Source of the DNA: a virus
Lineage: Duplodnaviria > Caudoviricetes
IMG/VR virus record: IMGVR_UViG_3300021399_000099
Location: 96,001 to 160,000 of that record
Length of the DNA stretch: 64,000 nt
Reading direction: 5' to 3' (one strand)
Below, one piece after another: positions 27,081-43,008 of the stretch. The position numbers were made by a program, and so were the translations under genes. The notes beneath the pieces are model-generated. The model was not told the origin of the DNA. It did no database searches and was given only the letters and a program-made list of their open reading frames with translations. Every line of letters starts with the position of its first letter. The first letter of the stretch is position 1.

Positions 27081-28232
27081 TTACTGAACTGTAAGGGTTA
27101 CGATTGCACTCCTGGAGGTCTTGACATTATCAGTTGCGTCAAGCCTGCTGTCGGTTTCAATTCTGTCTCCGGAAATGCCGCATTTAATAAGAGCATTTTT
27201 AACTACGTTGGCTCTATTTCTTGCAAGGGCATAGTTTCTCGGTTCGGTACCGGTCTTGCTGTCAGCAGAGCCAACAACTTTAATCAAAGTACCATCAACA
27301 AGATTCTTTGCAAAAGCCTCTACCTTTGCAGCTTCGGTATCACTCAAAACACAACTGCCAATAGGGAATGTAATAATATTGCTGCCAACAAGAACCTGCG
27401 TCTCCTTGACAATAACTTCTTTCACCTTAGGGTTCCTATTGTTGCAATCAATAAGCTGGTTCTTAAGGTCGCTATTTTCAGCCTCGAGGGAACCGACACG
27501 CTTATTAAGTTCGTTGTATTCATCAAGTGTGAAAGGCATTACAGGAGGGGCTACGGTTGAATATCGGTCAAAGTTCTTTTTCTTCCCGAGATTAAATGAA
27601 AGCCCTACGGTTGCACTAGGAAGAACACAAACTGGTCCAATAGCTGGATTACAGAACTGTGATTCCTTAGTAACAACAGCACCGAGTTCAATGTTCAAAT
27701 TGACAACCGGTCCAAGACGAAGTTCATTAATAAGACCGGCACCGACACCGAATTCTCTGTCAAGGTTTGCTCCTGCTTTGTTATGTACCATTAACAAACC
27801 AGCCTGTGCATAAGGAATGAAATCCCAGAATCTGGTTTCCTTATATCCACTAATTGAGTTTGAAATATTGAAAAGAACATCTCCATGCACATAATGCTGA
27901 TAGAACATTCCTTCAAACTTCGGGTTAGTCTTTACGTTGTTTGTCAAACCGTTATATCCTACACGAAGACCCATGGACGGAGTGAGCCACTTACCGACGT
28001 TTGCATTAACTGCGATACCAATATTTCCAACTTCGAGGTTGTTGTAAAATGTGTTCATTCCAACGCCTAAACCGACGAACCAATTTGCGCCACCACCATT
28101 TGTAAGGTAAGGGCCCTTTACTACGTAACCGTTTGCGTCGCGGTTTCCGTCTTCCTGAGCATACACATTGGTTGTGCCCAGGGCAAAAATCATTGCAACA
28201 AGTGCAACTAAAATAAACTTAAACTTCTTCAT
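27081..28232 (-). CDS. ompA: Bacteroidales-type OmpA family outer membrane protein
   Basis: Signal peptide, beta-barrel (NWFVG.G.G, VGKWLTP..GLR, R.WDFIPY), OmpA C-terminal domain GSADSKTG...N..LA..RA..V. Confidence 0.9.
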   Translation of the reverse strand: MKKFKFILVALVAMIFALGTTNVYAQEDGNRDANGYVVKGPYLTNGGGANWFVGLGVGMNTFYNNLEVGNIGIAVNANVGKWLTPSMGLRVGYNGLTNNVKTNPKFEGMFYQHYVHGDVLFNISNSISGYKETRFWDFIPYAQAGLLMVHNKAGANLDREFGVGAGLINELRLGPVVNLNIELGAVVTKESQFCNPAIGPVCVLPSATVGLSFNLGKKKNFDRYSTVAPPVMPFTLDEYNELNKRVGSLEAENSDLKNQLIDCNNRNPKVKEVIVKETQVLVGSNIITFPIGSCVLSDTEAAKVEAFAKNLVDGTLIKVVGSADSKTGTEPRNYALARNRANVVKNALIKCGISGDRIETDSRLDATDNVKTSRSAIVTLTVQ

Positions 28233-28310
28233 ACTTTAAATAATGTTTTTTAGTTTTATTAATATACATAAATATATTGAAACAAACAAATAAAGAAAGC
28301 GGGTTTTATA

Positions 28311-28319
28311 ACTATTTAT
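28311..28319 (+). promoter_or_regulatory. Putative late promoter motif ACTATTTAT
   Basis: Upstream of adhesin and amidase. Confidence 0.55.
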
Positions 28320-28340
28320 ATGATAAAATACGTAAAGATA

Positions 28341-29507
28341 ATGGAACATACTAACTTATTTTTCTACAGAGATAAAGCCGACCTTGAAGCTGCATACCCT
28401 GACGGAAAGGTCGATGTCGTACCTGGCGTAGCATATGCAAGGGGTGCAGCCGGAGAAAACGGAACAACCCTTTTCAATAAAAAACTTGTGAAATACGAGG
28501 TCACACTCCTGCTTAAGAACAAGAGCGGGGAGACTGTCGGTGACTCGGAGTCCGTATTGACAAAAGACGTCCTTGAAGGCCAGAGCATTAAGGTTAATAT
28601 CGTTGCTCCTGAGGTTGAAAACTATAAACCAAGGCTTAAAGTTGAAAAGATTGAAGTTTCCGCAGACACAGAGCATACAGTAATATACCTTGGAAAGACA
28701 GCATATACCGTTACGGTTCATCACGTATTTGACGGTGAGCCCATTGCCCCAGATACTGAAATAGAAATCGACGACGTATGGGACGAGAGTTCGGTTGTCG
28801 TAACTGTCGAACCTGCATCGGTTGTCGGTTATACTGCTGAAACTCACACGATTACCGTATCTGGCAGCTGCGAATATACACTTGAATATGAAGAGCCCAG
28901 CTACAAGGCAATCGACCTTGGTCTTCCTTCTGGCACATTATGGTGTTCTTGTAATGTAGGTGCTTCATCACCAGAACAATATGGTGATTACTTTGCTTGG
29001 GGAGAAATCGAGCCAAATAAGGCTACCGCTTATACCGAAGAGAACTATAGATTTTACAATGGCAGCGGAAACGAGTATTCTAAATACAATTCTAACGATG
29101 GACTACAAGAACTTGAACTTGCCGATGACGCGGCTAATGTTATGATGGGCGGTGATTGGCATATACCGACCGATTCACAGGCGAATGAACTTTTCGAAAA
29201 CACTACCTCTTCCTGGACAACTGACTATAATGGTACTGGGGTTGCCGGTCTTATTCTAACATCAACTGCGAATGGTAATTCAATTTTTATTCCGGCTGCA
29301 GGCGACTATTTGCTGGGAGGACTGGATGGTGTTGGCGAGTATTCTGACCTTTGGTGCCAGGGACTTTTAAATGTTTATTCTGCTTATGAGTTTGGATTTG
29401 ACAATTCTGGGGGTGGCGTGTGGGACAAGAATAGGTTTGGAGGTCTTACAATTCGTGGTGTTATCGGTGAAGGGCCAGAACCAGGACCAGGTCCAAAGTT
29501 AGCTTAA
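28341..29507 (+). CDS. Adhesin-like protein: N-terminal adaptor, two MucBP-like repeats, C-terminal DLGLPSGTLW C-type-lectin-fold domain
   Basis: IDLGLPSGTLWCSCNVGASSPEQYGDYFAWGE...WHIPT...IFIPAAG...IRGV; start set at MEHTNL after the late motif. Confidence 0.7.
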   Translation: MEHTNLFFYRDKADLEAAYPDGKVDVVPGVAYARGAAGENGTTLFNKKLVKYEVTLLLKNKSGETVGDSESVLTKDVLEGQSIKVNIVAPEVENYKPRLKVEKIEVSADTEHTVIYLGKTAYTVTVHHVFDGEPIAPDTEIEIDDVWDESSVVVTVEPASVVGYTAETHTITVSGSCEYTLEYEEPSYKAIDLGLPSGTLWCSCNVGASSPEQYGDYFAWGEIEPNKATAYTEENYRFYNGSGNEYSKYNSNDGLQELELADDAANVMMGGDWHIPTDSQANELFENTTSSWTTDYNGTGVAGLILTSTANGNSIFIPAAGDYLLGGLDGVGEYSDLWCQGLLNVYSAYEFGFDNSGGGVWDKNRFGGLTIRGVIGEGPEPGPGPKLA

Positions 29508-29522
29508 AATATTTTTAAAACA

Positions 29523-30341
29523 ATGTGTGCAATATTAAACTTTTTAAAAAATGTCTTCGTTAAAAATGAAGATATTGAAGAAGAAGTTGTCAGTGAGATG
29601 ATTTCGAACGAAGAGACTATACCGGAAACAAATGATAATCCGGTTGATGATACGGTTCCAGCTGTTATTGATGAACCAATCAGTGCCGGCAATAACACTT
29701 ATTCCGGCAGTAACTTCGTCGTTCTCCTTGACAATGGCCACGCCAAATCTACTCCAGGCAAGAGAAGCCCCAAACTTGATGACGGCAGAATATTCTATGA
29801 GTGGGAATTCAACCGAGACATTGTGTCCAGGATTGCTGACGGACTTACAAAACTCGGTATAAAGCACCATATCCTTGTGCCGGAGATTGAAACTGACGTG
29901 GCATTAAGTGAGAGGGCAAACCGGGCAAACAAATATTGCAAACAGTACGGTGCAAAAAATTGTTTCTTCATATCCGTACATTCAAACGCATTCGGCAAGG
30001 AAGGAAAGTGGGAAGACCCCGGAAGATGGTCTGTATGGACTACCGTCGGTGTTACAAAAAGTGACGAATACGGCAAGATTTTCTACAAGGTGGCAGAAGA
30101 GATGCTCGAGCCGTACGGATTCGCTTGCAGGGACGGAAAAGTGCAAGGAAACGGCAATGACGGACCAGACTACGAGAGCAACTTCACTGTAATCTACAAA
30201 ACCTGGTGTCCGGCAATCCTCACCGAAAACCTGTTCTACACTAACAAGAAAGAGTGTGAGTGGCTTATGACCGATGAAGGCAGGCAGGTAATAGCCGATA
30301 TACACATAGAGGCAATAAAGAGGATAATCGACAGCCTTTAA
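29523..30341 (+). CDS. N-acetylmuramoyl-L-alanine amidase (Amidase_3), probable endolysin
   Basis: LDNGH..TPGKRSP, EWEFNR, L.ER..RAN, SVHSNA, PAILTENLFYTN. Confidence 0.92.
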   Translation: MCAILNFLKNVFVKNEDIEEEVVSEMISNEETIPETNDNPVDDTVPAVIDEPISAGNNTYSGSNFVVLLDNGHAKSTPGKRSPKLDDGRIFYEWEFNRDIVSRIADGLTKLGIKHHILVPEIETDVALSERANRANKYCKQYGAKNCFFISVHSNAFGKEGKWEDPGRWSVWTTVGVTKSDEYGKIFYKVAEEMLEPYGFACRDGKVQGNGNDGPDYESNFTVIYKTWCPAILTENLFYTNKKECEWLMTDEGRQVIADIHIEAIKRIIDSL

Positions 30342-33487: not shown

Positions 33488-33516
33488 AATTTACAAAAAA
33501 CGTGCCAATCTGTCAA
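33488..33516 (-). promoter_or_regulatory. Nested promoter: TTGACA-N17-TAAATT containing TGGCACG-N4-TTGTA
   Basis: TTGACAGATTGGCACGTTTTTTGTAAATT then 6 nt then ATG (33481). Confidence 0.7.
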
Positions 33517-33534: not shown

Positions 33535-33568
33535 AAAAAACCCCGGAAATGTCATTTTTTCCGGGGTC
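33535..33568 (-). terminator. Intrinsic terminator ending the NAD cluster transcript
   Basis: accccggaaa / tttccggggt plus T-tract. Confidence 0.75.
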
Positions 33569-33575
33569 TTTCCCT

Positions 33576-33818
33576 TCAGTGCGTGGCCTTATATGCGATG
33601 TATCTCACAAACCAACCGAAATTACTGTCCTTAACTCGGTTGAAAAGGTAGATGCAAAGGAATACTGGCCAACAGATTACCTGCCAGAAAGACTCAATAG
33701 TGGGAAACAGATTGACCGACTTAGCAGACATACCGAACATCAGCCCGGTATATGCATAAAACCAAATGATTAAAAAAACTGCAGTCATATATCTAAACAT
33801 TTTTAAAGTGCTGAACAA
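33576..33818 (-). CDS. Small membrane protein
   Basis: Hydrophobic; overlaps nadE end. Confidence 0.5.
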   Translation of the reverse strand: MFSTLKMFRYMTAVFLIIWFYAYTGLMFGMSAKSVNLFPTIESFWQVICWPVFLCIYLFNRVKDSNFGWFVRYIAYKATH

Positions 33819-34561
33819 CCACCCTTTGGAACAAACATCTGGCCGAGCCCCATCTTGAATTTCGTTTTCTGGTGCATAGATTCGATTGCTTCATCAACCT
33901 TCTTATCGCCACTTGTTCCTTTTACAAGATAAGTGTCAATGGCAGCGTAACTGAAACCCCACTTGGCGAATTTCTCATCATCAGGTGCGGAATTTGGAAG
34001 CCCGTCATCTGGAATCTTATCAACCCATTCAGCAGGAAGACCAAGAGCATAACCAACTCCCTTAACCTGGCGGACCGTAAGATTACCAATGGGTTCTACG
34101 TCGCTGGCTCCATCACCATAACGAGTGAAATACCCTACATAGTTCTCGCTGGCATTGCATGTACCAATCACACGACCGTTATTGGACTGGGAAATAGCAT
34201 AGAGGACGGTCATTCTAAGCCTCGGGGGAATATTCTGCTCGGTCTGTTTGCTCATATGTCCCGGAAAAACCGTCTTAATCTCATCAGTAAGACTCCCGAT
34301 AGGGAACTCAAGAAACTTGATACCAAGATATTCAGCAATCTTGTCAGCATCGTTAAGTCCTTGCCCAGTGTCCGGAATACCAACGCCAATAACCCTATCT
34401 TTACCAAGGGCTTCCACACAAAGAGCTGCCACGATGGTGCTATCCTTACCGCCAGAAAGTCCGATTACGGCATTGCAATCTGGACCGTTCTTTTCAAACC
34501 AGTCCTTAATCCACTGAACCAGTTCGTTTTTCAAACCATTAAATCTTTCCGTCATAACCAT
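33803..34561 (-). CDS. nadE: NH3-dependent NAD+ synthetase
   Basis: GLSGGKDS PP-loop, NI.PRLRM..LY, GTCNASE.YVGYFT.YGDG; no glutaminase domain. Confidence 0.93.
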   Translation of the reverse strand: MVMTERFNGLKNELVQWIKDWFEKNGPDCNAVIGLSGGKDSTIVAALCVEALGKDRVIGVGIPDTGQGLNDADKIAEYLGIKFLEFPIGSLTDEIKTVFPGHMSKQTEQNIPPRLRMTVLYAISQSNNGRVIGTCNASENYVGYFTRYGDGASDVEPIGNLTVRQVKGVGYALGLPAEWVDKIPDDGLPNSAPDDEKFAKWGFSYAAIDTYLVKGTSGDKKVDEAIESMHQKTKFKMGLGQMFVPKGGCSAL

Positions 34562-34808
34562 AACGATTTTTAGTGATATAATCCTTCATAATAACGGCAT
34601 GAACCGTCAATGACAGTTTAAATAAACTCCCAATGCACTCTTCTGGCAACTTATACCCTTCCTTTAAATAAACAACGTTATCTATTAAGACTGAATCATA
34701 TAAGTCCAAAAAGTCTTCCTTTTGACAAATATCGGGGAATCCTACGCATTTCTGGTATAAAGCCTCCCGGTATTTTTCCGGGAGGTCTGTCATTGGCTTC
34801 TGTTCCAT
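34539..34808 (-). CDS. hypothetical protein
   Basis: ORF overlapping nadE start. Confidence 0.55.
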   Translation of the reverse strand: MEQKPMTDLPEKYREALYQKCVGFPDICQKEDFLDLYDSVLIDNVVYLKEGYKLPEECIGSLFKLSLTVHAVIMKDYITKNRYGYDGKI

Positions 34809-34838
34809 ATGCTCTTAATCTGCATTTCTATTTGTTTG

Positions 34839-35747
34839 TTATAAACTTTTTACTTTGTTCCACTTTCTTTCTAAAAAATCGACATCATCACAAAAAGTTG
34901 CAATTTTCTTAATGTCATCTCTATTACCGATGACTAAAGCGGCCGTTCCTTTTTTTGTTATTTTTGTTGTTACTGAGGATACGCCATAGTCTCTTTTTAA
35001 AATTTCGGCAAAAAAATCAAGGTTTCCTTTCCACGAACTATGAAGTTCAATTTTAAGTTGTGGATAACCTTTTGATAACCATATGCAACCGTCTCCATCT
35101 ACAAATCCTATGAAAAAATAAACAAAATCATTTTGAAAAATCTCTAACTTTGGAGGGAAGTAGGTTTTTGCGGTTTCTTCCATACAAAGAGTTTCCCTCC
35201 AAGATTCAATCCTTGGTTTGTCATTCCCTTGTATCTTTACAAAGCCTTTATTATCTTCCTTTACTGTGACTGATAATCGTTTTGCTATTTTTTCAAGGTG
35301 TGCTCTATCAACATTTTTCAATGATATTATCAGCGTATTAGTTTTTGAAAGGTGCCCATCGGCCATAATAAATCCCCACCAATATAGACTTTCTTTTGTT
35401 AGTGCATTCAAATCTAAAAAAGACAAATCACATTTCCTACTTCGGTCTATTTTTGCCCGATATCCAAGCCAATGCGCGTGTAGTTCTATTTTTTGGTAAG
35501 TTCTCCCAGGAAACGCTTTCAGTAAGTCTTCCATGGAGTATGTTTCCCAGGCTTCTTTCAACTTTGCATTTTCTTCGGCGGTCCAACGGTCATAGTGATT
35601 TGACTTTATATGGAGAGCATCTATTTTAGCCTTTATCTGTTTTCTTGTTTTTCCCGGAAGGAGTTCAATACATTTGTAAATCCCTCCTTCCGGAAAATTT
35701 TCATAAAGAATCTGTTTTTCTTCGTCTGTCCAAGTTCTTTTACCCAT
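34839..35747 (-). mobile_element. Free-standing LAGLIDADG homing endonuclease with two N-terminal Myb/HTH-like repeats
   Basis: YWWGFIMADGHL and FFIGFVDGDGCI motifs; WT.EE...L repeats; visibly more AT-rich than flanks. Confidence 0.8.
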
Positions 35748-35802
35748 GTTATATAGTGCTTTAATATAAATATATAACATTTAGTAAAAAAATCAAGGCA
35801 TA

Positions 35803-37353
35803 TTAAAACTTTCCGTCATTAAGGCGATTTCTAATATCGGCAAGACTCTCTTCTTTTATCATTTTACCGTCTTTGAAAACTGTTTCCATAAGGGTGTTCT
35901 GCATTGATTCTTCCCAAGTTAAACCGTCCTTATAGGTGATTTTCTTGTTCCACTTATCTCTCCAAAACACGGCACAGCATCCCTTCTGGGACTTTTTGAA
36001 ATTACCGCCTCCGGCTTCCCTATCAGTTTTAGGGTCCTTATAGATTGGAATCTTCGTAACAACGCCATTCTTGTCTGTGAATTCAGCGTAAATCGGCTTA
36101 ATGGCCATCGAAAAAGTGTCCCTCGTGAAAGGTTTGAGCATTCCATCTTCCTCAATACAATGCATGGAGAAGGAGCCCACACCCAGAGAAACATTGTTTG
36201 CGGCGAAACCGTTTTCCTCAAGAATTCGGTAAATCTCCTCGGCTCTCTGCACTGTAATAGAATCGCCATAAAGGGCCTTTACGTGCGGATTAAGGACCTT
36301 GTAACCCTTGGAGTTAGTTGTACCTCCAAAAATCTTCCAGAGTTCAAATACGGTCTCCGTAACCACCTTTACACAGTCGCCAGAGTCACCACGGACAAGC
36401 AGGCATCCGTTATGGGCAAGGATTTCGTCTTTAAGCGTAGGAAGAATGTTCTTTACCACATTCCAGTAATCATACGAATCGGAGACGCAGCTGAACGAAG
36501 TGTTGGGGTAAAGTTCGGTAAGGGCACGCTTGATAAAGATACGCTCGCGGTGAGGGTCAATGTCGGCGTACTCGTAATCCGGGTTATCGACCGTATCCTT
36601 TGCAGAATTGGAGCACATAACGAAATGCTCGGTGGAGACGGCGCCAAAGGCAACCTCTTCCTTTTCACAGTCGCAGTTGTAATAGTGCTCGAGATAGGGT
36701 ACGACGGGAACAGTGGCGCTATTCACGAAGGACAGACACCATGCTGAACCGGCCTTAAGTGCCGCGTCAAGGCCCTGGTCGCCACGGAAATCAAAGTTAC
36801 CGAGGGCGCGACGGCGAGGTACATTATCATCGCATGTCTTGTCATACCAATAATTTACAATCTCACGGTAAGTATGACCTACGGTAGCACAGACCATAGG
36901 ATACCACATCTCAGCGGAAATCAACGACTCCAGTGCCTGACCGAGCCAAGCGAAATCCGGATGGGTGTTGGTGATACCGAAAATGGGGCAATGAATTGGA
37001 ACGATGGTACCTTCCGGCAGGGAAACTACCTCAATGGGGAGATAGCCGAGACGATGAAGGTTTCTAATCTTTCCATAGTCACAAAGGTCTTTTCCAAGGG
37101 TATTATCCATAACCCTGGCATATTCGGCGACCACTTCTTCCTCAGTCTTTTTGAAGAAGTTCTCGTTGAAGTAGTCGATGAGCCAGGTCTTGCAGAATGC
37201 CTGGAGACCAAAATTAACCACTCCGTCCCAGCGATTAACGCGGGAACTTCTGGGGGTGAAATACGATACGCTCTTCGTCATACCCGGGTCAAGCATTTCG
37301 CTATGAACTGCCTTGTAGAAATCTTTGAGTAGTAATGCGTTACAATTAAACAT
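35803..37353 (-). CDS. NAMPT-family phosphoribosyl/ADP-ribosyl transferase (Namat-like), predicted nicotinate-preferring
   Basis: DFYK..H, NFDFRG, TEH (phospho-His), VSDSYD, LVRGDSG, LYGDSIT, GVGS, KDPKTD, KKSQKG. Confidence 0.9.
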   Translation of the reverse strand: MFNCNALLLKDFYKAVHSEMLDPGMTKSVSYFTPRSSRVNRWDGVVNFGLQAFCKTWLIDYFNENFFKKTEEEVVAEYARVMDNTLGKDLCDYGKIRNLHRLGYLPIEVVSLPEGTIVPIHCPIFGITNTHPDFAWLGQALESLISAEMWYPMVCATVGHTYREIVNYWYDKTCDDNVPRRRALGNFDFRGDQGLDAALKAGSAWCLSFVNSATVPVVPYLEHYYNCDCEKEEVAFGAVSTEHFVMCSNSAKDTVDNPDYEYADIDPHRERIFIKRALTELYPNTSFSCVSDSYDYWNVVKNILPTLKDEILAHNGCLLVRGDSGDCVKVVTETVFELWKIFGGTTNSKGYKVLNPHVKALYGDSITVQRAEEIYRILEENGFAANNVSLGVGSFSMHCIEEDGMLKPFTRDTFSMAIKPIYAEFTDKNGVVTKIPIYKDPKTDREAGGGNFKKSQKGCCAVFWRDKWNKKITYKDGLTWEESMQNTLMETVFKDGKMIKEESLADIRNRLNDGKF

Positions 37354-37387
37354 ATATCTTTCTTTTAAGTTTTATTGCATATTATCT

Positions 37388-37407
37388 TGCAAATACCGTA
37401 CCAAACT
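37388..37407 (-). promoter_or_regulatory. sigma54-like motif upstream of the NAMPT-like gene (AGTTTGGTACGGTATTTGCA)
   Basis: -24/-12 spacing conserved. Confidence 0.7.
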
Positions 37408-37657
37408 AGAGCTCCTCGGTCTCAACATAGGTCGTTTTTACAATCTTTTCGATTTTAACGACGTTGGACTTGGCCCAGTAACCGGGTGACGGATGTCTTT
37501 CCTTGATATCTTGGAAACTTGGCATGTACCATTTGAAGTAGCCATTTTTCTTAATGGTATTCAGTTTCCGTTTTTCATTTGCACCAAGCTGAAGGGTGTG
37601 GAAGTCGTCGCCGGTAATCAGGTAGTACTCCTGAGTTTCTTTCGTAATATTTGCCAT
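37406..37657 (-). CDS. hypothetical protein within NAD cluster
   Basis: ORF flanked by two sigma54-like motifs. Confidence 0.65.
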   Translation of the reverse strand: MANITKETQEYYLITGDDFHTLQLGANEKRKLNTIKKNGYFKWYMPSFQDIKERHPSPGYWAKSNVVKIEKIVKTTYVETEEL

Positions 37658-37688
37658 AATTAAATCTTTATTGTTACAGCATTAACTG

Positions 37689-37708
37689 TACAAATATCGT
37701 GCCAAACT
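37689..37708 (-). promoter_or_regulatory. sigma54-like motif (AGTTTGGCACGATATTTGTA)
   Basis: -24/-12 spacing conserved. Confidence 0.7.
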
Positions 37709-38549
37709 ATGCATTCAGCACGATAACTTTTTCATTATACCCGGTATAGAGGCTGTCCGTGGTATAAATGTAATCCACAGTACCGTTCTCGAGGCGTTTA
37801 AGCAGGGTTCCCTTCTCCGGGTCAAGCACACTGTTCTCCGTGTGGGTAGCATAAGCGTAGATATGTTCAAAGCCAAACTCCTTAAGCTTATCGGCGCTGT
37901 ATGCCAGGGTTCCACCGTAGGAAATAATGTCGTCAATCATAATGACGCTGCGACCAGAGCACTGGGAAGCATCAGGTTCATATCCTTCCGGTGTAGTTAT
38001 TCGGAGGCCTTTGATTTTCCCGGTCTCCCAATCACGAACCTTATGACCGATTAAGACATTTTTCTTGTTCGGGAAAAGGTCGCCGTAACGCTTGTAGGCA
38101 CCCTCGTCCGGGAAATAGAGATAATCATCGTTACCAAGGCCAATCCGTCTCACTGTATCGAGAATGAAATCCATAGGGCTCATAACCCATACGTTCTTGA
38201 TGAGTGCCGGGGTAACATTGGAGTGCGGGTCAAGTACATACACCCGATAAAACTCGAGGCTGTTGATTATGTCACAGAAGTATTTAAGTGTGAATACCTC
38301 GCTACTGTCCTTAATTCTGTCCATTCTGGCGTTGGGGACATAAAAGAGGTTAAGTACGAACAGCATATCCGGGTGAAGGCCCTTTAGATGCTTGGTAATA
38401 TAAATAAGGGTCAAAAGTTCCCCATCGTTCTCATAACGCCAAGTGATATGGTTGGCAGATGCAACGTTGAGGTAAAAATCTTGTTTCAGCAGCTGTGTTC
38501 CGTCCGGAAAGTGCTGAACTTCAACTTTTTGATTATTTACTAGAATCAT
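37707..38549 (-). CDS. Ribose-phosphate pyrophosphokinase-like protein (PRS family; possible ADPR-PP synthetase Adps)
   Basis: FPDG, PNARMDR, DPHS, FPDEGAYKRY, K.RDW.TG.I, DDIISYGGT, YATH. Confidence 0.88.
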   Translation of the reverse strand: MILVNNQKVEVQHFPDGTQLLKQDFYLNVASANHITWRYENDGELLTLIYITKHLKGLHPDMLFVLNLFYVPNARMDRIKDSSEVFTLKYFCDIINSLEFYRVYVLDPHSNVTPALIKNVWVMSPMDFILDTVRRIGLGNDDYLYFPDEGAYKRYGDLFPNKKNVLIGHKVRDWETGKIKGLRITTPEGYEPDASQCSGRSVIMIDDIISYGGTLAYSADKLKEFGFEHIYAYATHTENSVLDPEKGTLLKRLENGTVDYIYTTDSLYTGYNEKVIVLNA

Positions 38550-38563
38550 ATCTTAATGTTTTT

Positions 38564-38740
38564 TTAAAAACCCATTCCTTCCCAAGGTTCGTCAAGGAGG
38601 CTTTCAACGGAACAATTATTCAGTGATGCTATTTCCTCGAGTTCCTTAATCCGCTCACTGGCCTTCTCTGCATCGACATAGGCCCATTCGCCGCCACCGT
38701 TAATGGCATCATAATAATCTTTATAAGGGTTATTGCTCAT
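38564..38740 (-). CDS. Small hypothetical protein (58 aa, MSNNLIKDYYDAINGGG...) within NAD cluster
   Basis: Manual translation; fills gap between pncA and the PRS-like gene. Confidence 0.55.
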   Translation of the reverse strand: MSNNPYKDYYDAINGGGEWAYVDAEKASERIKELEEIASLNNCSVESLLDEPWEGMGF

Positions 38741-38752
38741 AATCTTGTCTTT

Positions 38753-39304
38753 TTAGATAACGTCAATCTGGCACATCTGCATGGTCTTGCAGGCAGCGAA
38801 ATGGGTCTCAGGGGTTACACCGGCGCAGCAGTCCTCAACGACCTTGACAGTGGCCTTGTCATAGAACGCAGCCTTAACCATCAGAGCATTGGAAACCACA
38901 CAGATATCGGTACAGAAACCGACAAACTCAATGTCAAGGTTGGCCCAAAGAGAAACACGCTTGATTTCGTCAATGAGGTCAAAGGAGCCAAAGGTAGGTT
39001 TCTCTACACGAACAACATTGATATTACGAATCTTTGCGTCATCAAGGGCTGCCTGGACGTTGGCTTCAATGTTCCAACCGTCAGTACCCTTTACGCAATG
39101 CACAACGGGAAGCTTCTGCCCCTCGTTAGTCTGGAGATAATCTTCTTCGTGGGTGTCCATGGTGTAAAAGATTGCATCACCGTTGAACTCACGAATCTTT
39201 TTGACAATGTTTGGAACGTTCTTGATAGCCTTTTCGTTCCTGAGGGCGCCAGTAATAAAATCGTTCTGGCAGTCGATAACGACCAAAATTTTTCTTGTTT
39301 CCAT
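38753..39304 (-). CDS. pncA: Nicotinamidase (isochorismatase family)
   Basis: VIDCQNDF, DTH, HCVKGT.GW, EKPTFGS, GFCTDICV (Asp-Lys-Cys triad and metal ligands). Confidence 0.88.
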   Translation of the reverse strand: METRKILVVIDCQNDFITGALRNEKAIKNVPNIVKKIREFNGDAIFYTMDTHEEDYLQTNEGQKLPVVHCVKGTDGWNIEANVQAALDDAKIRNINVVRVEKPTFGSFDLIDEIKRVSLWANLDIEFVGFCTDICVVSNALMVKAAFYDKATVKVVEDCCAGVTPETHFAACKTMQMCQIDVI

Positions 39305-39340: not shown

Positions 39341-39360
39341 TACAAATACCGTGCCAAACT
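39341..39360 (-). promoter_or_regulatory. sigma54-like motif upstream of pncA (AGTTTGGCACGGTATTTGTA)
   Basis: Identical 20-mer to the 6115 copy. Confidence 0.7.
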
Positions 39361-39367
39361 TACTTCC

Positions 39368-39793
39368 TTATTTTAACGGGTCATCACATTTAACCCACTC
39401 CCTTCTTTCTTTTTCGTACATTTTCCACCCCTTCCCATCCTCATAGTAATAGGAAAGAACGTTCCAGTCGGTATTATCTGTACCTGGAATATACTCCTTA
39501 ATGTATGCACTGATTCTCCAGAGCTTGATGATTCCTTTATCGTACATATCCAGGAAAATCTTCTTGCACGTATCATCAGCGAAACTGGCGTGTAGCGTTC
39601 CCCAATCTCCATAACTTGATAGAGATAAGCCATCCAACCCCTTTGCATTATAGGAACAATCACTGGCCATTTCCGGTTTATATCCAAGTTTTTCAATGTA
39701 CCTATGGTCTTCACCGGAACATTTATAGTCTATTGAATGCCCCTTCTCAAACGCAACATTAAACGGGTAAGGTAAATTATTCTCCATTTTCAT
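39368..39793 (-). CDS. hypothetical protein
   Basis: Start trimmed to MKMENN. Confidence 0.6.
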   Translation of the reverse strand: MKMENNLPYPFNVAFEKGHSIDYKCSGEDHRYIEKLGYKPEMASDCSYNAKGLDGLSLSSYGDWGTLHASFADDTCKKIFLDMYDKGIIKLWRISAYIKEYIPGTDNTDWNVLSYYYEDGKGWKMYEKERREWVKCDDPLK

Positions 39794-39935
39794 CCTCTTT
39801 ATTGTCCTCTTCTTTGTAATACCACTCCAGATAGACAGAGTAGTTCCAGTCAATTTTGTCATAGTTCTCCTCTATCCATTTCAGCAGAGCTTTCTTGGAT
39901 GCAAACTCCTGGCCATACAGTTGTCTATTCATCAT
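39777..39935 (-). CDS. Small hypothetical protein
   Basis: 3' part of track ORF 39777..40094; fills gap. Confidence 0.5.
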   Translation of the reverse strand: MMNRQLYGQEFASKKALLKWIEENYDKIDWNYSVYLEWYYKEEDNKEDENGE

Positions 39936-40584: not shown

Positions 40585-40897
40585 GTTCTTTTAAAATCAT
40601 TTCTCGTAATGTTGGGGTGTCCCTTACGATGTAGCAACCGTGATAGTTCCCCAGGTGAAACTTTGCGTGGTGCTCCGTTTCCAGTCTTTTAGCCACCGTT
40701 TCTAATAGCATCCTGTCGGACTGGCGTGTTCCATAATGGTCATAGGCATATATCTTGGTGCCCATCGGCTGTGTAAAAAACTCTTGTATCGTCCTGTCAG
40801 CCAATCTTGTTGTTTCCCCGGTCGCCCTGCTCAATAATTCTTGCAACTCTTCGTCTGTTTTACTTTTTAAGAAGTTGTCATAATATTCGCTGTTCAT
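40559..40897 (-). CDS. hypothetical protein
   Basis: ORF tiles operon. Confidence 0.65.
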   Translation of the reverse strand: MNSEYYDNFLKSKTDEELQELLSRATGETTRLADRTIQEFFTQPMGTKIYAYDHYGTRQSDRMLLETVAKRLETEHHAKFHLGNYHGCYIVRDTPTLREMILKELENRKDDE

Positions 40898-42009
40898 TAT
40901 GTTGTAAGGTCTTTATCACTTATAGCCACATCAAACGGTGCAAACAAATCACGTTCCAAGTCTTCAGTGGTCAAGTATCCACGCTCGACAAATTCGTCAC
41001 GCAGGGGGTTTGCCAGCTGAATGGACATCGGGTGGGCCTTACCGGTGGCTGCTATATCGCTACGGAGGCGGAAAAAGTGTATCCACGCGTCCTTGAAACC
41101 GCAGAGAACCAGTTCAGTCTTTGTAGATAGCGGGAGAACGCCCCTTGCCTGGTCCGGTATCCACGGCTTCTTTTCCTCTTCGGCAATCCCCTCTATATGG
41201 CTCCAATCGTTTGTAAGCCCATTGTATGCGTTTTCGGCAGAATTAAGTGCAATGAGCCATTGGTCAATCCTGTCATTTTTAGGCCTACCGCCGTACTTTA
41301 CGATTCGCATAGGGACTCGAGTCGGGGGGTCATCTTCCGTTGCTTTTTCAAAAAGTTCATTTCCCCCAACATCAACCCAGTCTCCGTCCCACCATATGAC
41401 ATTTTCTCCCTCGGCAAGCTTATCTTTTCCAATCCACGGCGGTATAACGAAACAACACTGGTTGCCATATTTCTTTCTGTTGTAATTCACATACCTGGTG
41501 CTTTCCTGGACCATTGACATCACCCTATGACGCAGGAAGTCTCGTCCAAGTCCAATATCGGTAATGAACTTCACGGTATAACGCTTCTCGTGGTATTCAG
41601 TTGGCTCACAGAGATACTTCAGGTCGTCAAGGCGGTTGTTCTCCACAAGGACACGATAGTTGGTGGTGATGTACCATTTAGAATTATAAAGTGCTCCTAT
41701 CTTGCTGTATTTATTGTTGCTGTAAAATCGTACGATGCTTTGGGTGGCTCCCCAATCTTTAAGTCCTGTCGGGTGTCCATTCTCATCAACATCTACTGGC
41801 GGCTCTTCAATACACAAATACACCGTCCCGAACTCCAGCACCGCACCGTGCCCTTCCTTCACCCTATTTTCTACAAACTTTCTGGCGGTCTCTCCACCTT
41901 TCACTTCACTCTTATAGGAGGTCTTGCCACAGCGTTCTATAATGTCATAGATACCCTGTAGTCCCGGCCCCTGTTCAATAATTTCGTAACTTGGTCTAAC
42001 TAATTTCAT
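40897..42009 (-). CDS. thyX: FAD-dependent thymidylate synthase
   Basis: IERCG..SYKSE, GH.AVLE, RHR..S..QESTRY, AR.VLP...KTEL, W.HFF.LR, AHP. Confidence 0.93.
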   Translation of the reverse strand: MKLVRPSYEIIEQGPGLQGIYDIIERCGKTSYKSEVKGGETARKFVENRVKEGHGAVLEFGTVYLCIEEPPVDVDENGHPTGLKDWGATQSIVRFYSNNKYSKIGALYNSKWYITTNYRVLVENNRLDDLKYLCEPTEYHEKRYTVKFITDIGLGRDFLRHRVMSMVQESTRYVNYNRKKYGNQCCFVIPPWIGKDKLAEGENVIWWDGDWVDVGGNELFEKATEDDPPTRVPMRIVKYGGRPKNDRIDQWLIALNSAENAYNGLTNDWSHIEGIAEEEKKPWIPDQARGVLPLSTKTELVLCGFKDAWIHFFRLRSDIAATGKAHPMSIQLANPLRDEFVERGYLTTEDLERDLFAPFDVAISDKDLTT

Positions 42010-42030
42010 GATACTATACTTTATAAATTA

Positions 42031-42059
42031 AAAGTACAAAAATTCCTGGACTTTGCCAA
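42031..42059 (-). promoter_or_regulatory. sigma70-like promoter TTGGCA-N17-TACTTT upstream of thyX
   Basis: Matches recurrent motif. Confidence 0.5.
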
Positions 42060-42078
42060 AAATCTTTGTACTTTCTTT

Positions 42079-43008
42079 TTACTTAAGGTTGTCAATCCCG
42101 TTTTCGGCGTACCATTCGCGGAATTTCTTGTATTCCTCCTCGCCTACTTTGTTGATGGCCACCTGCAAGTCGTTGTAATCGCAGTGCTTAATCTTGACGA
42201 TAATCCGCTTGCCGCGAGGGTCCTTGATAGGAACGACCGGTCTGGCTACAATGCCTTCCTCAAGATAGTCGGGGTTTGAAACATCCGGCACGAGGGTCTT
42301 AAATCCCTTCTTAACCATCTCTTCTGCCTCCTCAATGGTCATCTGGCCAATGTAGGGTGCAACTGTGAGACCAAGTTTCTCGGCATAGTCGTTCAGCATA
42401 TCAATGGGAACCCACCAACCCTGCACACAGATGTCGAAGATGGAGAAACGGTTCTTATCCTTGTCATAGTTGCCGCCAGACTGAATCTTCTTACCGAAGA
42501 ACTCACCATAGATATAAACGGGAACCTCTTCTACGTGGATAACGCCATACTGTGGGTGTTCTCTGTATTCGTTGATGGTGATGGGGTTCGGGTCAGGGTC
42601 ACCAGCAGAAGAATCATACAAAAGAATCTGGTTCTTATCATTCATTACAGGAGCAAACTTAGCACTCTCAGGCGGGAACAGCTCAGCAAGAATGGGCTTA
42701 ATCCTTTCAATCTCAGCATCAAGGAATGCCTTCTGCCCGGTACCTACGATGTCAGCATTGTCAGTCTTGCCACCAGGGAAACATTCTCCAGTGGAAGGGA
42801 AATAAACAATCTTACTATTGGTACCGTCTATTTTACTAAAACAATCAAACTTCAAACCCTTGATGTATTCCATAAAATCGTCAGAGTATTCATCGACAAT
42901 GATTTTATTCATAAACACCTTCCAGTCCTTGTTAGGAAGAGTGACCTTTCCAAGATTTTGATATCTTTTATACAAAGTGTTGATTTTTGTGTAAGTTTGT
43001 GTCTTCAT
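42079..43008 (-). CDS. RNA ligase (Rnl2-like nucleotidyltransferase)
   Basis: KIDGTN (motif I), YGEFFG, F.IFDI, EEGIVARP, VKIK. Confidence 0.8.
   Translation of the reverse strand: MKTQTYTKINTLYKRYQNLGKVTLPNKDWKVFMNKIIVDEYSDDFMEYIKGLKFDCFSKIDGTNSKIVYFPSTGECFPGGKTDNADIVGTGQKAFLDAEIERIKPILAELFPPESAKFAPVMNDKNQILLYDSSAGDPDPNPITINEYREHPQYGVIHVEEVPVYIYGEFFGKKIQSGGNYDKDKNRFSIFDICVQGWWVPIDMLNDYAEKLGLTVAPYIGQMTIEEAEEMVKKGFKTLVPDVSNPDYLEEGIVARPVVPIKDPRGKRIIVKIKHCDYNDLQVAINKVGEEEYKKFREWYAENGIDNLK

Follow-up and report, generated by a model that had tools for sequence, protein, structure and literature searches.

Depletion of nicotinamide adenine dinucleotide (NAD+) is common in bacterial anti-phage defense, and three routes by which phages rebuild it have been described so far. 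We analyzed a 64,000-nucleotide stretch of DNA (the window), which comprises bases 96001-160000 of a 216,910-bp IMG/VR virus record (IMGVR_UViG_3300021399_000099; CheckV completeness 61%) and carries on its minus strand, at 33803-39304, genes for four enzymes: the nicotinamidase PncA, a kinase of the Adps family, a transferase of the Namat family and the NAD synthetase NadE, which is of the NH3 type. From their sequences, we think it probable that these four genes form a nicotinate-type variant of the phage pathway NARP1 and that the full route uses pyrophosphorylated ADP-ribose (ADPR-PP) as donor.

Organization of the NAD cluster

In the order of transcription, the cluster consists of PncA, a 58-aa open reading frame (ORF), the PRS-like kinase, an 83-aa ORF, the NAMPT-like transferase, a LAGLIDADG homing endonuclease, an 89-aa ORF, NadE and a terminator (Table 1). 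This arrangement had been predicted from the letters and a list of ORFs. Profile matches confirmed the four enzymes, their strand, coordinates and order, and the interspersed small ORFs and endonuclease, and a stem followed by a T-run was found where the prediction had placed a terminator closing the cluster at 33535. Dozens of loci in phages and bacteria contain this gene set, so the arrangement goes far beyond chance. The ORFs of 58, 83 and 89 aa, and another of 80 aa, have no family match and no homolog in related loci and were not counted as parts of the pathway.

Table 1. Features of the NAD cluster and its surroundings, in window coordinates
Feature	Position	Strand	Basis or remark
Sigma54-like -24/-12 motif, TGGCACG-N4-TTGT	39342..39356	-	38 nt ahead of the PncA start; motif match only
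PncA-like nicotinamidase, 183 aa	38753..39304	-	PF00857, 3.7e-21
58-aa ORF	38564..38740	-	No Pfam/PHROG match; no tblastn match in related loci
Adps-family PRS-like pyrophosphokinase, 280 aa	37707..38549	-	phrog_619, 1e-61
Sigma54-like motif	37690..37704	-	Ahead of the 83-aa ORF; motif match only
83-aa ORF	37406..37657	-	No Pfam/PHROG match; no homolog in related loci
Sigma54-like motif	37389..37403	-	36 nt ahead of the transferase start; motif match only
Namat-family transferase P0001, non-Asp (putative nicotinate) type, 516 aa	35803..37353	-	PF04095, PF18127; phrog_448, 3e-152
LAGLIDADG homing endonuclease, free-standing, 313 aa	34839..35780	-	PF14528, 4e-10
89-aa ORF	34539..34808	-	No Pfam/PHROG match; no homolog in related loci
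NadE, single-domain NH3-type NAD synthetase, 252 aa	33803..34561	-	PF02540, 2.5e-49, 168 bits
Intrinsic terminator, end of unit	33535..33572	-	15-pair stem with 6 GC pairs, then T-run
Sigma54-like motif	33493-33507	-	One of 13 in the window, 9 of which are not listed here

Properties of the four enzymes

By its sequence, the PRS-like protein is a member of the Adps family and not a canonical phosphoribosyl pyrophosphate (PRPP) synthetase. It failed all NCBIfam Prs models (65 bits, with cut-offs of 113-296) and gave only sub-threshold matches to the Pfam Prs models. In phmmer searches it scored 79 bits to Adps of phage ICP1 and 138 bits to Adps of Bacillus phage Nemo vs 39 bits to the best solved PRPP synthetase, which bears out the suggestion that it groups with Adps and not with Prs. 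ICP1 Adps, onto which we mapped the kinase residues, has been validated biochemically (PMC13586617); its gene product has the same length as the window kinase (280 aa), and its residues F18, R87, H121, D161, K185, D212 and D213 are all kept. Since most of these residues are common to PRPP synthetases, they argue for competence and not for specificity. The PP-loop was also considered as a discriminating rule and rejected, as it did not separate the two contexts.

The transferase is of NAMPT/Namat type (NF006629, 403 bits) and scored 337 bits to the solved phage chains 9w5x and 9w5w vs 126 bits to human NAMPT; the numbering and motifs of 9w5x agree with the paper on SPbetaL1 Namat. The model for PncB-type nicotinate phosphoribosyltransferases, TIGR01513, gave 18.8 bits, far from its cut-off of 297. 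The window enzyme keeps the catalytic H243 as well as R321, D323, F187, R190, D11 and Y13; in Namat numbering, the catalytic His, Arg306, Asp308, Phe189, Arg192, Asp13, Tyr15 and the clamp-loop Arg40 are kept. In the helix motif of the adenine clamp, GS-X-Phi-X-Phi-X-Phi-TRD, the GSF and TRD elements are kept and are separated by an insertion of nine residues, so that 15 residues lie between GS and TRD vs 6 in the canonical motif.

The pyridine pocket of the transferase is changed. Asp215 of Namat hydrogen-bonds the amide of nicotinamide (PMC12774641), and the equivalent Asp219 of human NAMPT defines substrate specificity (PMC7096376). In the window enzyme, Asp215 is replaced by A213, Ala242 by S240, a Gly by N211 and a His by G185. 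A D219S mutant of human NAMPT is reported to take nicotinate. When we compared the pockets of 121 family members lacking the acidic residue (non-Asp type) with those of 98 Asp/Glu members and four Nampt references, the position of Asp215 was occupied by Ala, Ser or Val in each of the 121 and by Asp or Glu in the 98 other Namat and the four Nampt. Five positions of the pocket region switch together (in window numbers, His to Gly/Ser at 185, Gly to Asn/Lys at 211, Asp to Ala/Ser at 213, Ser to Gly at 237 and Ala to Ser at 240); these are near-invariant in the other Namat and identical in three to four of the four Nampt references. It is very likely, judging from these residues, that the pocket has been switched to nicotinate. 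Such a variant is not rare. The best 150 matches include 114 cluster representatives (50% identity) of suitable size, of which 40 have the switched pocket.

The PncA and NadE sequences keep their catalytic motifs, which we count in favor of the nicotinate-type pathway. The closest solved relatives of PncA are the nicotinamidases 1ilw, 3o90 and 3pl1, and its triad (D11/K102/C135), like its metal site (D50/H52/H69), is shared by 95% or more of 74 cluster-linked homologs; the NCBIfam PncA model scored 20.8 bits, below its cut-off of 174. NadE matches TIGR00552 with 166 bits (cut-off 64), its SGGxDS ATP pyrophosphatase loop (S36-S41) is kept across 68 homologs, and, as a single-domain protein, it lacks the glutaminase domain. 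Its scores to solved relatives (102 bits to P. horikoshii 2e18, 95 to Francisella 3fiu and 84 to B. subtilis 1ee1) do not discriminate between a preference for deamido-NAD (NaAD) and one for nicotinate mononucleotide (NaMN), and neither did the papers found. In a complete 156-kb relative (L026, 11479-12660), the N terminus of NadE carries a fused NADAR domain (PF08719, 1.2e-28), a domain architecture that may be a small hint of an ADP-ribose context. In another relative, L005, NadE has an N-terminal extension that is similar in length to that of L026 and has no family match.

Origin of the transferase

A FastTree phylogeny of 219 sequences was rooted on four NARP2-type phage Nampt, which include those of Sinorhizobium phage phiN3 and Erwinia phage pEa_SNUABM_47; two of the four have a gene for a cytidylyl-/NMN (nicotinamide mononucleotide) adenylyltransferase just upstream. 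The 121 aligned non-Asp sequences correspond to 118 tips, all of which form one clade (support 0.999) that is nested within Namat and has as its sister 28 canonical Namat, including that of Bacillus phage Nemo. The placement of the window transferase within Namat and not Nampt is thus upheld, and the single clade indicates that the switch arose once, from a Namat-type enzyme.

In thirteen members of the non-Asp clade the adenine-clamp motif is still canonical; a switched pocket can hence be combined with an unaltered motif. Three sequences from Clostridium and Oscillospiraceae genomes (L102, L103 and L105), in which an Ala/Ser pocket is combined with a canonical clamp free of the insertion, appear from their residues to be intermediates that branched off early within the nicotinate type. 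PncA and Adps lie alongside in L102 and L105; L103 lies where its contig begins, and no partner is visible there.

Linkage of the four genes

We retrieved the surroundings of transferase and NadE relatives from IMG/VR, GenBank phages and species-representative bacterial genomes and located in these loci the homologs of all window proteins. Among 81 non-Asp loci, PncA, Adps and NadE are all present in 60, PncA and Adps in 14, and NadE with or without Adps in 6, with the remaining locus at a contig end. PncA and/or NadE thus stand beside the transferase in 80 of 81 non-Asp loci vs none of 22 loci of the Asp/Glu type (canonical NARP1), 19 of which have Adps only (Fisher p = 1.5e-21, a value not corrected for shared ancestry). 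An Adps-family kinase is near the transferase in 78 of the 81. Gene order varies among loci (P-R-N-E, R-N-E-P and P-N-E-R, where P is PncA, R the PRS-like kinase, N the NAMPT-like transferase and E NadE) and identity ranges from 43 to 77%. Since order and spacing vary and identity falls to 43%, the linkage is kept up by selection. A survey of four-gene co-occurrence, which had been proposed together with the original prediction, therefore finds a linkage that recurs in many phages and bacteria in variable order.

The same tight operon is present in genomes of Ruminococcus, Lachnospiraceae, Oscillospiraceae, Clostridium and Elusimicrobia. A complete 354-kb phage has PncA, Adps and an Ala-type transferase and lacks NadE, as do some of the bacterial operons; these presumably use host NadE.

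It is also conceivable that the pocket serves another pyridine or base substrate, or that the four genes are auxiliary metabolic genes for general NAD supply, unlinked to NADase defenses. Presence of the operon in Ruminococcus, Lachnospiraceae and Elusimicrobia chromosomes suggests housekeeping recycling of ADP-ribose and NAD, and NAD-synthesis clusters of gut jumbo phages have been interpreted as general NAD supply (PMC11662467). However, with a nicotinamidase strictly linked upstream and an amidase for deamido-NAD downstream, nicotinate is the most economical substrate, and the Adps partner points to ADP-ribose, which is the product of NADases. Moreover, general supply and counter-defense are not mutually exclusive. 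We consider either form of this explanation improbable.

A search for adenylyltransferases

According to the original prediction, no adenylyltransferase accompanies the four genes. This holds for the cluster and for the 64-kb window, in which no HIGH-type nucleotidyltransferase (PF01467) was found, and does not hold for the genome, since a PF01467 scan of the whole record gave a single, weak match (G000:C1:65771-66220, 32 bits) about 30 kb before the window. The match lies in an ORF of 415 aa (G000:C1:65159-66406; L001:889-2136), whose product has a helical N-terminal half of no recognized family followed by the HIGH-type domain and belongs to a well-conserved phage family. It has the NadM-like motifs GRFQPFHLGH and ISGTAIR. 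It showed no phmmer similarity to NARP2 Nmnats, and an Atlas look-up returned only 'viral cytidylyltransferase-like' clusters. A model of its C-terminal domain (predicted local distance difference test score 83.7) matches NadM, NadD, archaeal NMN adenylyltransferase (NMNAT) and phosphopantetheine adenylyltransferase (PPAT) alike, with TM scores of ~0.5, which makes the protein a weak candidate for an NMN/NaMN adenylyltransferase. We also scanned ten records of relatives, seven of them at least 94% complete, and found PF01467 nowhere in the genome in five of these seven. No adenylyltransferase was found within 8-10 kb of the module in ~80 loci.

These results bear on the possibility that the cluster carries out ordinary Preiss-Handler salvage, in which PncA would supply nicotinate, the PRS-like protein PRPP and the transferase NaMN, which would be adenylated by host NadD or the phage NadM-like protein and then amidated by NadE. 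Several observations fit this possibility or otherwise count against a route through ADPR-PP. To our knowledge, NadD is near-universal in bacteria, and a route through PRPP and NaMN would work too. As the catalytic residues of Adps are common to PRPP synthetases, the kinase sequence is compatible with the use of ribose-5-phosphate. The clamp helix of the window transferase is interrupted by its insertion and, in a Ser-type subclade, the clamp-loop Arg, which is present in the window enzyme, is replaced by Met or Tyr, so recognition of adenine is not assured. Even canonical Namat still accepts PRPP in vitro (PMC12774641). The genome does contain a HIGH-type candidate with both NadM-like motifs, and NadM, NadD and archaeal NMNAT are among the structures that it matches best. 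Because the pocket switch arose once, its correlation with gene context represents one maintained evolutionary event and not many. Finally, the second-best solved relative of NadE, 3fiu, is presumably of the NaMN-amidating form.

Ordinary salvage is nonetheless rather unlikely. The kinase is far nearer to validated Adps than to any PRPP synthetase, and the transferase derives from Namat and not from PncB, the ubiquitous nicotinate phosphoribosyltransferase that is usual in Preiss-Handler clusters; a published phage cluster of this kind carries pncB and nadD (PMC11662467). NadE, although expected in hosts too, is usually carried by the module, whereas an adenylyltransferase never is, neither in the ~80 loci nor, with respect to the entire genome, in five of the seven most complete relatives. 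The 415-aa candidate is 30 kb away, does not resemble the NARP2 Nmnats and matches PPAT about as well as NMNAT.

Another possibility is a route of the Francisella type, in which nicotinate and PRPP would give NaMN, NadE would convert NaMN to NMN and the phage NadM-like protein would convert NMN to NAD+. The higher score of the window NadE to the Francisella enzyme than to that of B. subtilis (95 vs 84 bits) and the encoded protein with NadM-like motifs are compatible with such a route. However, the best NadE match is that of P. horikoshii (102 bits), with scores that are not discriminating, and most complete relatives are without any candidate NMNAT. The same operon is present in Bacillota, whose NadD prefers NaMN, and the route requires the same unsupported assumption of PRPP as donor. 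We regard it as most improbable.

Variation and surroundings of the cluster

In three DNA runs, each from a different study, contigs join 34805 to 35799 and skip exactly the endonuclease gene, which is thus a free-standing mobile insert and no component of the pathway. In these endonuclease-free alleles, the gap (34806-35798) falls between the stop of the transferase gene and the point where the next ORF starts. In a contig of run X5, 144 bases at 37245-37390, the 5′ end of the transferase gene, are replaced by 1080 other letters, which may be another mobile insert or encode a variant N terminus. An RNA-library run, X20, gave contigs that are 85-95% alike over parts of NadE and the transferase; as these may stem from relatives or contaminating DNA, we do not claim expression of the NAD cluster. 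Gaps in the contig coverage of runs X5, X7 and X20 are uninformative.

The Lak megaphage Lak-A2, a Prevotella phage (L003, MK250019.1; 7950-10466), encodes a Namat-like protein in which Glu takes the place of Asp215; its gene is followed by that of a LAGLIDADG endonuclease 35% identical to the one in the window. Adps, PncA and NadE are not nearby, and NadE is absent from the whole Lak-A2 record.

The window stretch was also found in ruminant gut and rumen metagenomes of several studies, and a near-identity DNA search of a phage collection with this stretch gave no match. The neighbors of the NAD cluster are genes of nucleotide metabolism, namely those for ThyX and an RNA ligase; the flanks at 40897-43008 and 27081-30341 include these two as well as genes for an Amidase_3 endolysin and for a protein with an OmpA domain, the last of which suggests a Gram-negative host. 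A copy of the transferase, 97% identical, is on a 3.3-kb contig (L057) that was binned with a Bacteroidales metagenome-assembled genome. Upstream of PncA, a 164-aa ORF (39368-39862) has no family match and has a 46% identical homolog in a 411-kb relative (L040), where it sits between the transferase and NadE, around 9530. In a PHROG scan of ten large window ORFs, one primase was found; the others belong to families of unassigned function. Sigma54-like motifs (TGGCAC-N5-TTGY) number 13 in the window vs 2.6 expected from shuffles.

Discussion

How would the nicotinate-type pathway work? After an NADase defense, such as one based on SIR2 or TIR, has split NAD+ to ADP-ribose and nicotinamide, PncA would convert nicotinamide to nicotinate, and the Adps-like kinase would pyrophosphorylate ADP-ribose to ADPR-PP. 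The Namat-derived transferase, without the amide-binding Asp, would then join nicotinate and ADPR-PP to form NaAD directly, and NadE would amidate NaAD to NAD+. Such a route would need no NMN/NaMN adenylyltransferase. What the sequences show is the identity of the four genes, the families to which they belong, their conserved linkage and the joint changes in the pocket; each catalytic step, and especially ADPR-PP and not PRPP as the donor, is what we infer, as is a function in counter-defense. Deamidated reconstitution of NAD+ was the central proposal of the original prediction and, in the computational tests, gene linkage, loss of the Asp, the Namat and Adps ancestries and the lack of an adenylyltransferase candidate in most complete relatives all favor it.

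The closest known system is NARP1 (SPbetaL1, Bas63, ICP1 and Paenibacillus foliorum; bioRxiv 10.1101/2024.02.11.579819, PMC12774641, PMC13586617). As in NARP1, an Adps-family kinase stands beside a Namat-family transferase that nests in Namat and keeps the catalytic residues, clamp-loop Arg40, GSF and TRD, and the module is without an adenylyltransferase. Unlike NARP1, the window enzyme has Ala for Asp215, Ser for Ala242, three more pocket changes and the nine-residue insertion in the clamp helix, and its predicted product is NaAD and not NAD+. The window module also adds PncA and NadE, neither of which NARP1 needs; indeed, PncA would destroy the NARP1 substrate.

Other phage systems are less similar. 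Although NARP2 (Nampt and Nmnat, as in Vibrio phage KVP40) also salvages a pyridine with a phosphoribosyltransferase of the NAMPT fold, its Nampt lies outside the Namat clade and keeps the Asp, the Nmnat gene is adjacent, and Adps, PncA and NadE are lacking. The Preiss-Handler clusters of 'NAD-jumbo phages' (pncB-nadD-nadE; Li et al. 2024, PMC11662467) share with the window a deamidated route ending in NadE and an occurrence in gut and rumen jumbo phages. However, the window has a Namat-derived enzyme and an Adps-like kinase in place of PncB and NadD, with no NadD in the module. For these phages, pncA is also mentioned. The NAD genes of gut jumbo phages are given at the KEGG level only (PMC11662467). 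NARP3 (PnuC and NadR; PMC13464706) is likewise a phage pathway that restores NAD+, but its chemistry is unrelated, as nicotinamide riboside is imported and then phosphorylated and adenylated.

Read in this way, the module is an undescribed variant of NARP1. The terms nicotinamidase, PncA, NadE, NAD synthetase, deamido-NAD and nicotinic acid are all absent from the NARP1 preprint (bioRxiv 10.1101/2024.02.11.579819). Our literature search found no paper that joins phage, nicotinamidase and NARP1, and a search for phage, NAD+ reconstitution and NaAD returned only the NARP3 paper (PMC13464706; PnuC and NadR). Neither the reaction of nicotinate with ADPR-PP to NaAD nor the pathway as a whole was found in any paper.

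On balance, we lean somewhat toward the view that the module adds a new activity, a nicotinate:ADPR-PP transferase ('Naat'), and with it a fourth route of NAD+ reconstitution (PncA-Adps-'Naat'-NadE) that would be widely distributed, both among phages of the gut and rumen and in chromosomes of Bacillota and Elusimicrobia. Such a route would rebuild NAD+ where nicotinamide is quickly deamidated, through an intermediate that may be beyond the reach of NADases. If this view is correct, a non-textbook reaction, nicotinate and ADPR-PP to NaAD, would be added to NAD metabolism, and the presence of a nicotinamidase next to an apparently nicotinamide-using enzyme would be accounted for. It would also provide a rule for annotation from sequence, namely Asp215 to Ala/Ser, Ala242 to Ser and Gly to Asn/Lys. 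Finally, the presence of the operon in chromosomes of gut Bacillota hints at housekeeping recycling of ADP-ribose that extends beyond phages.

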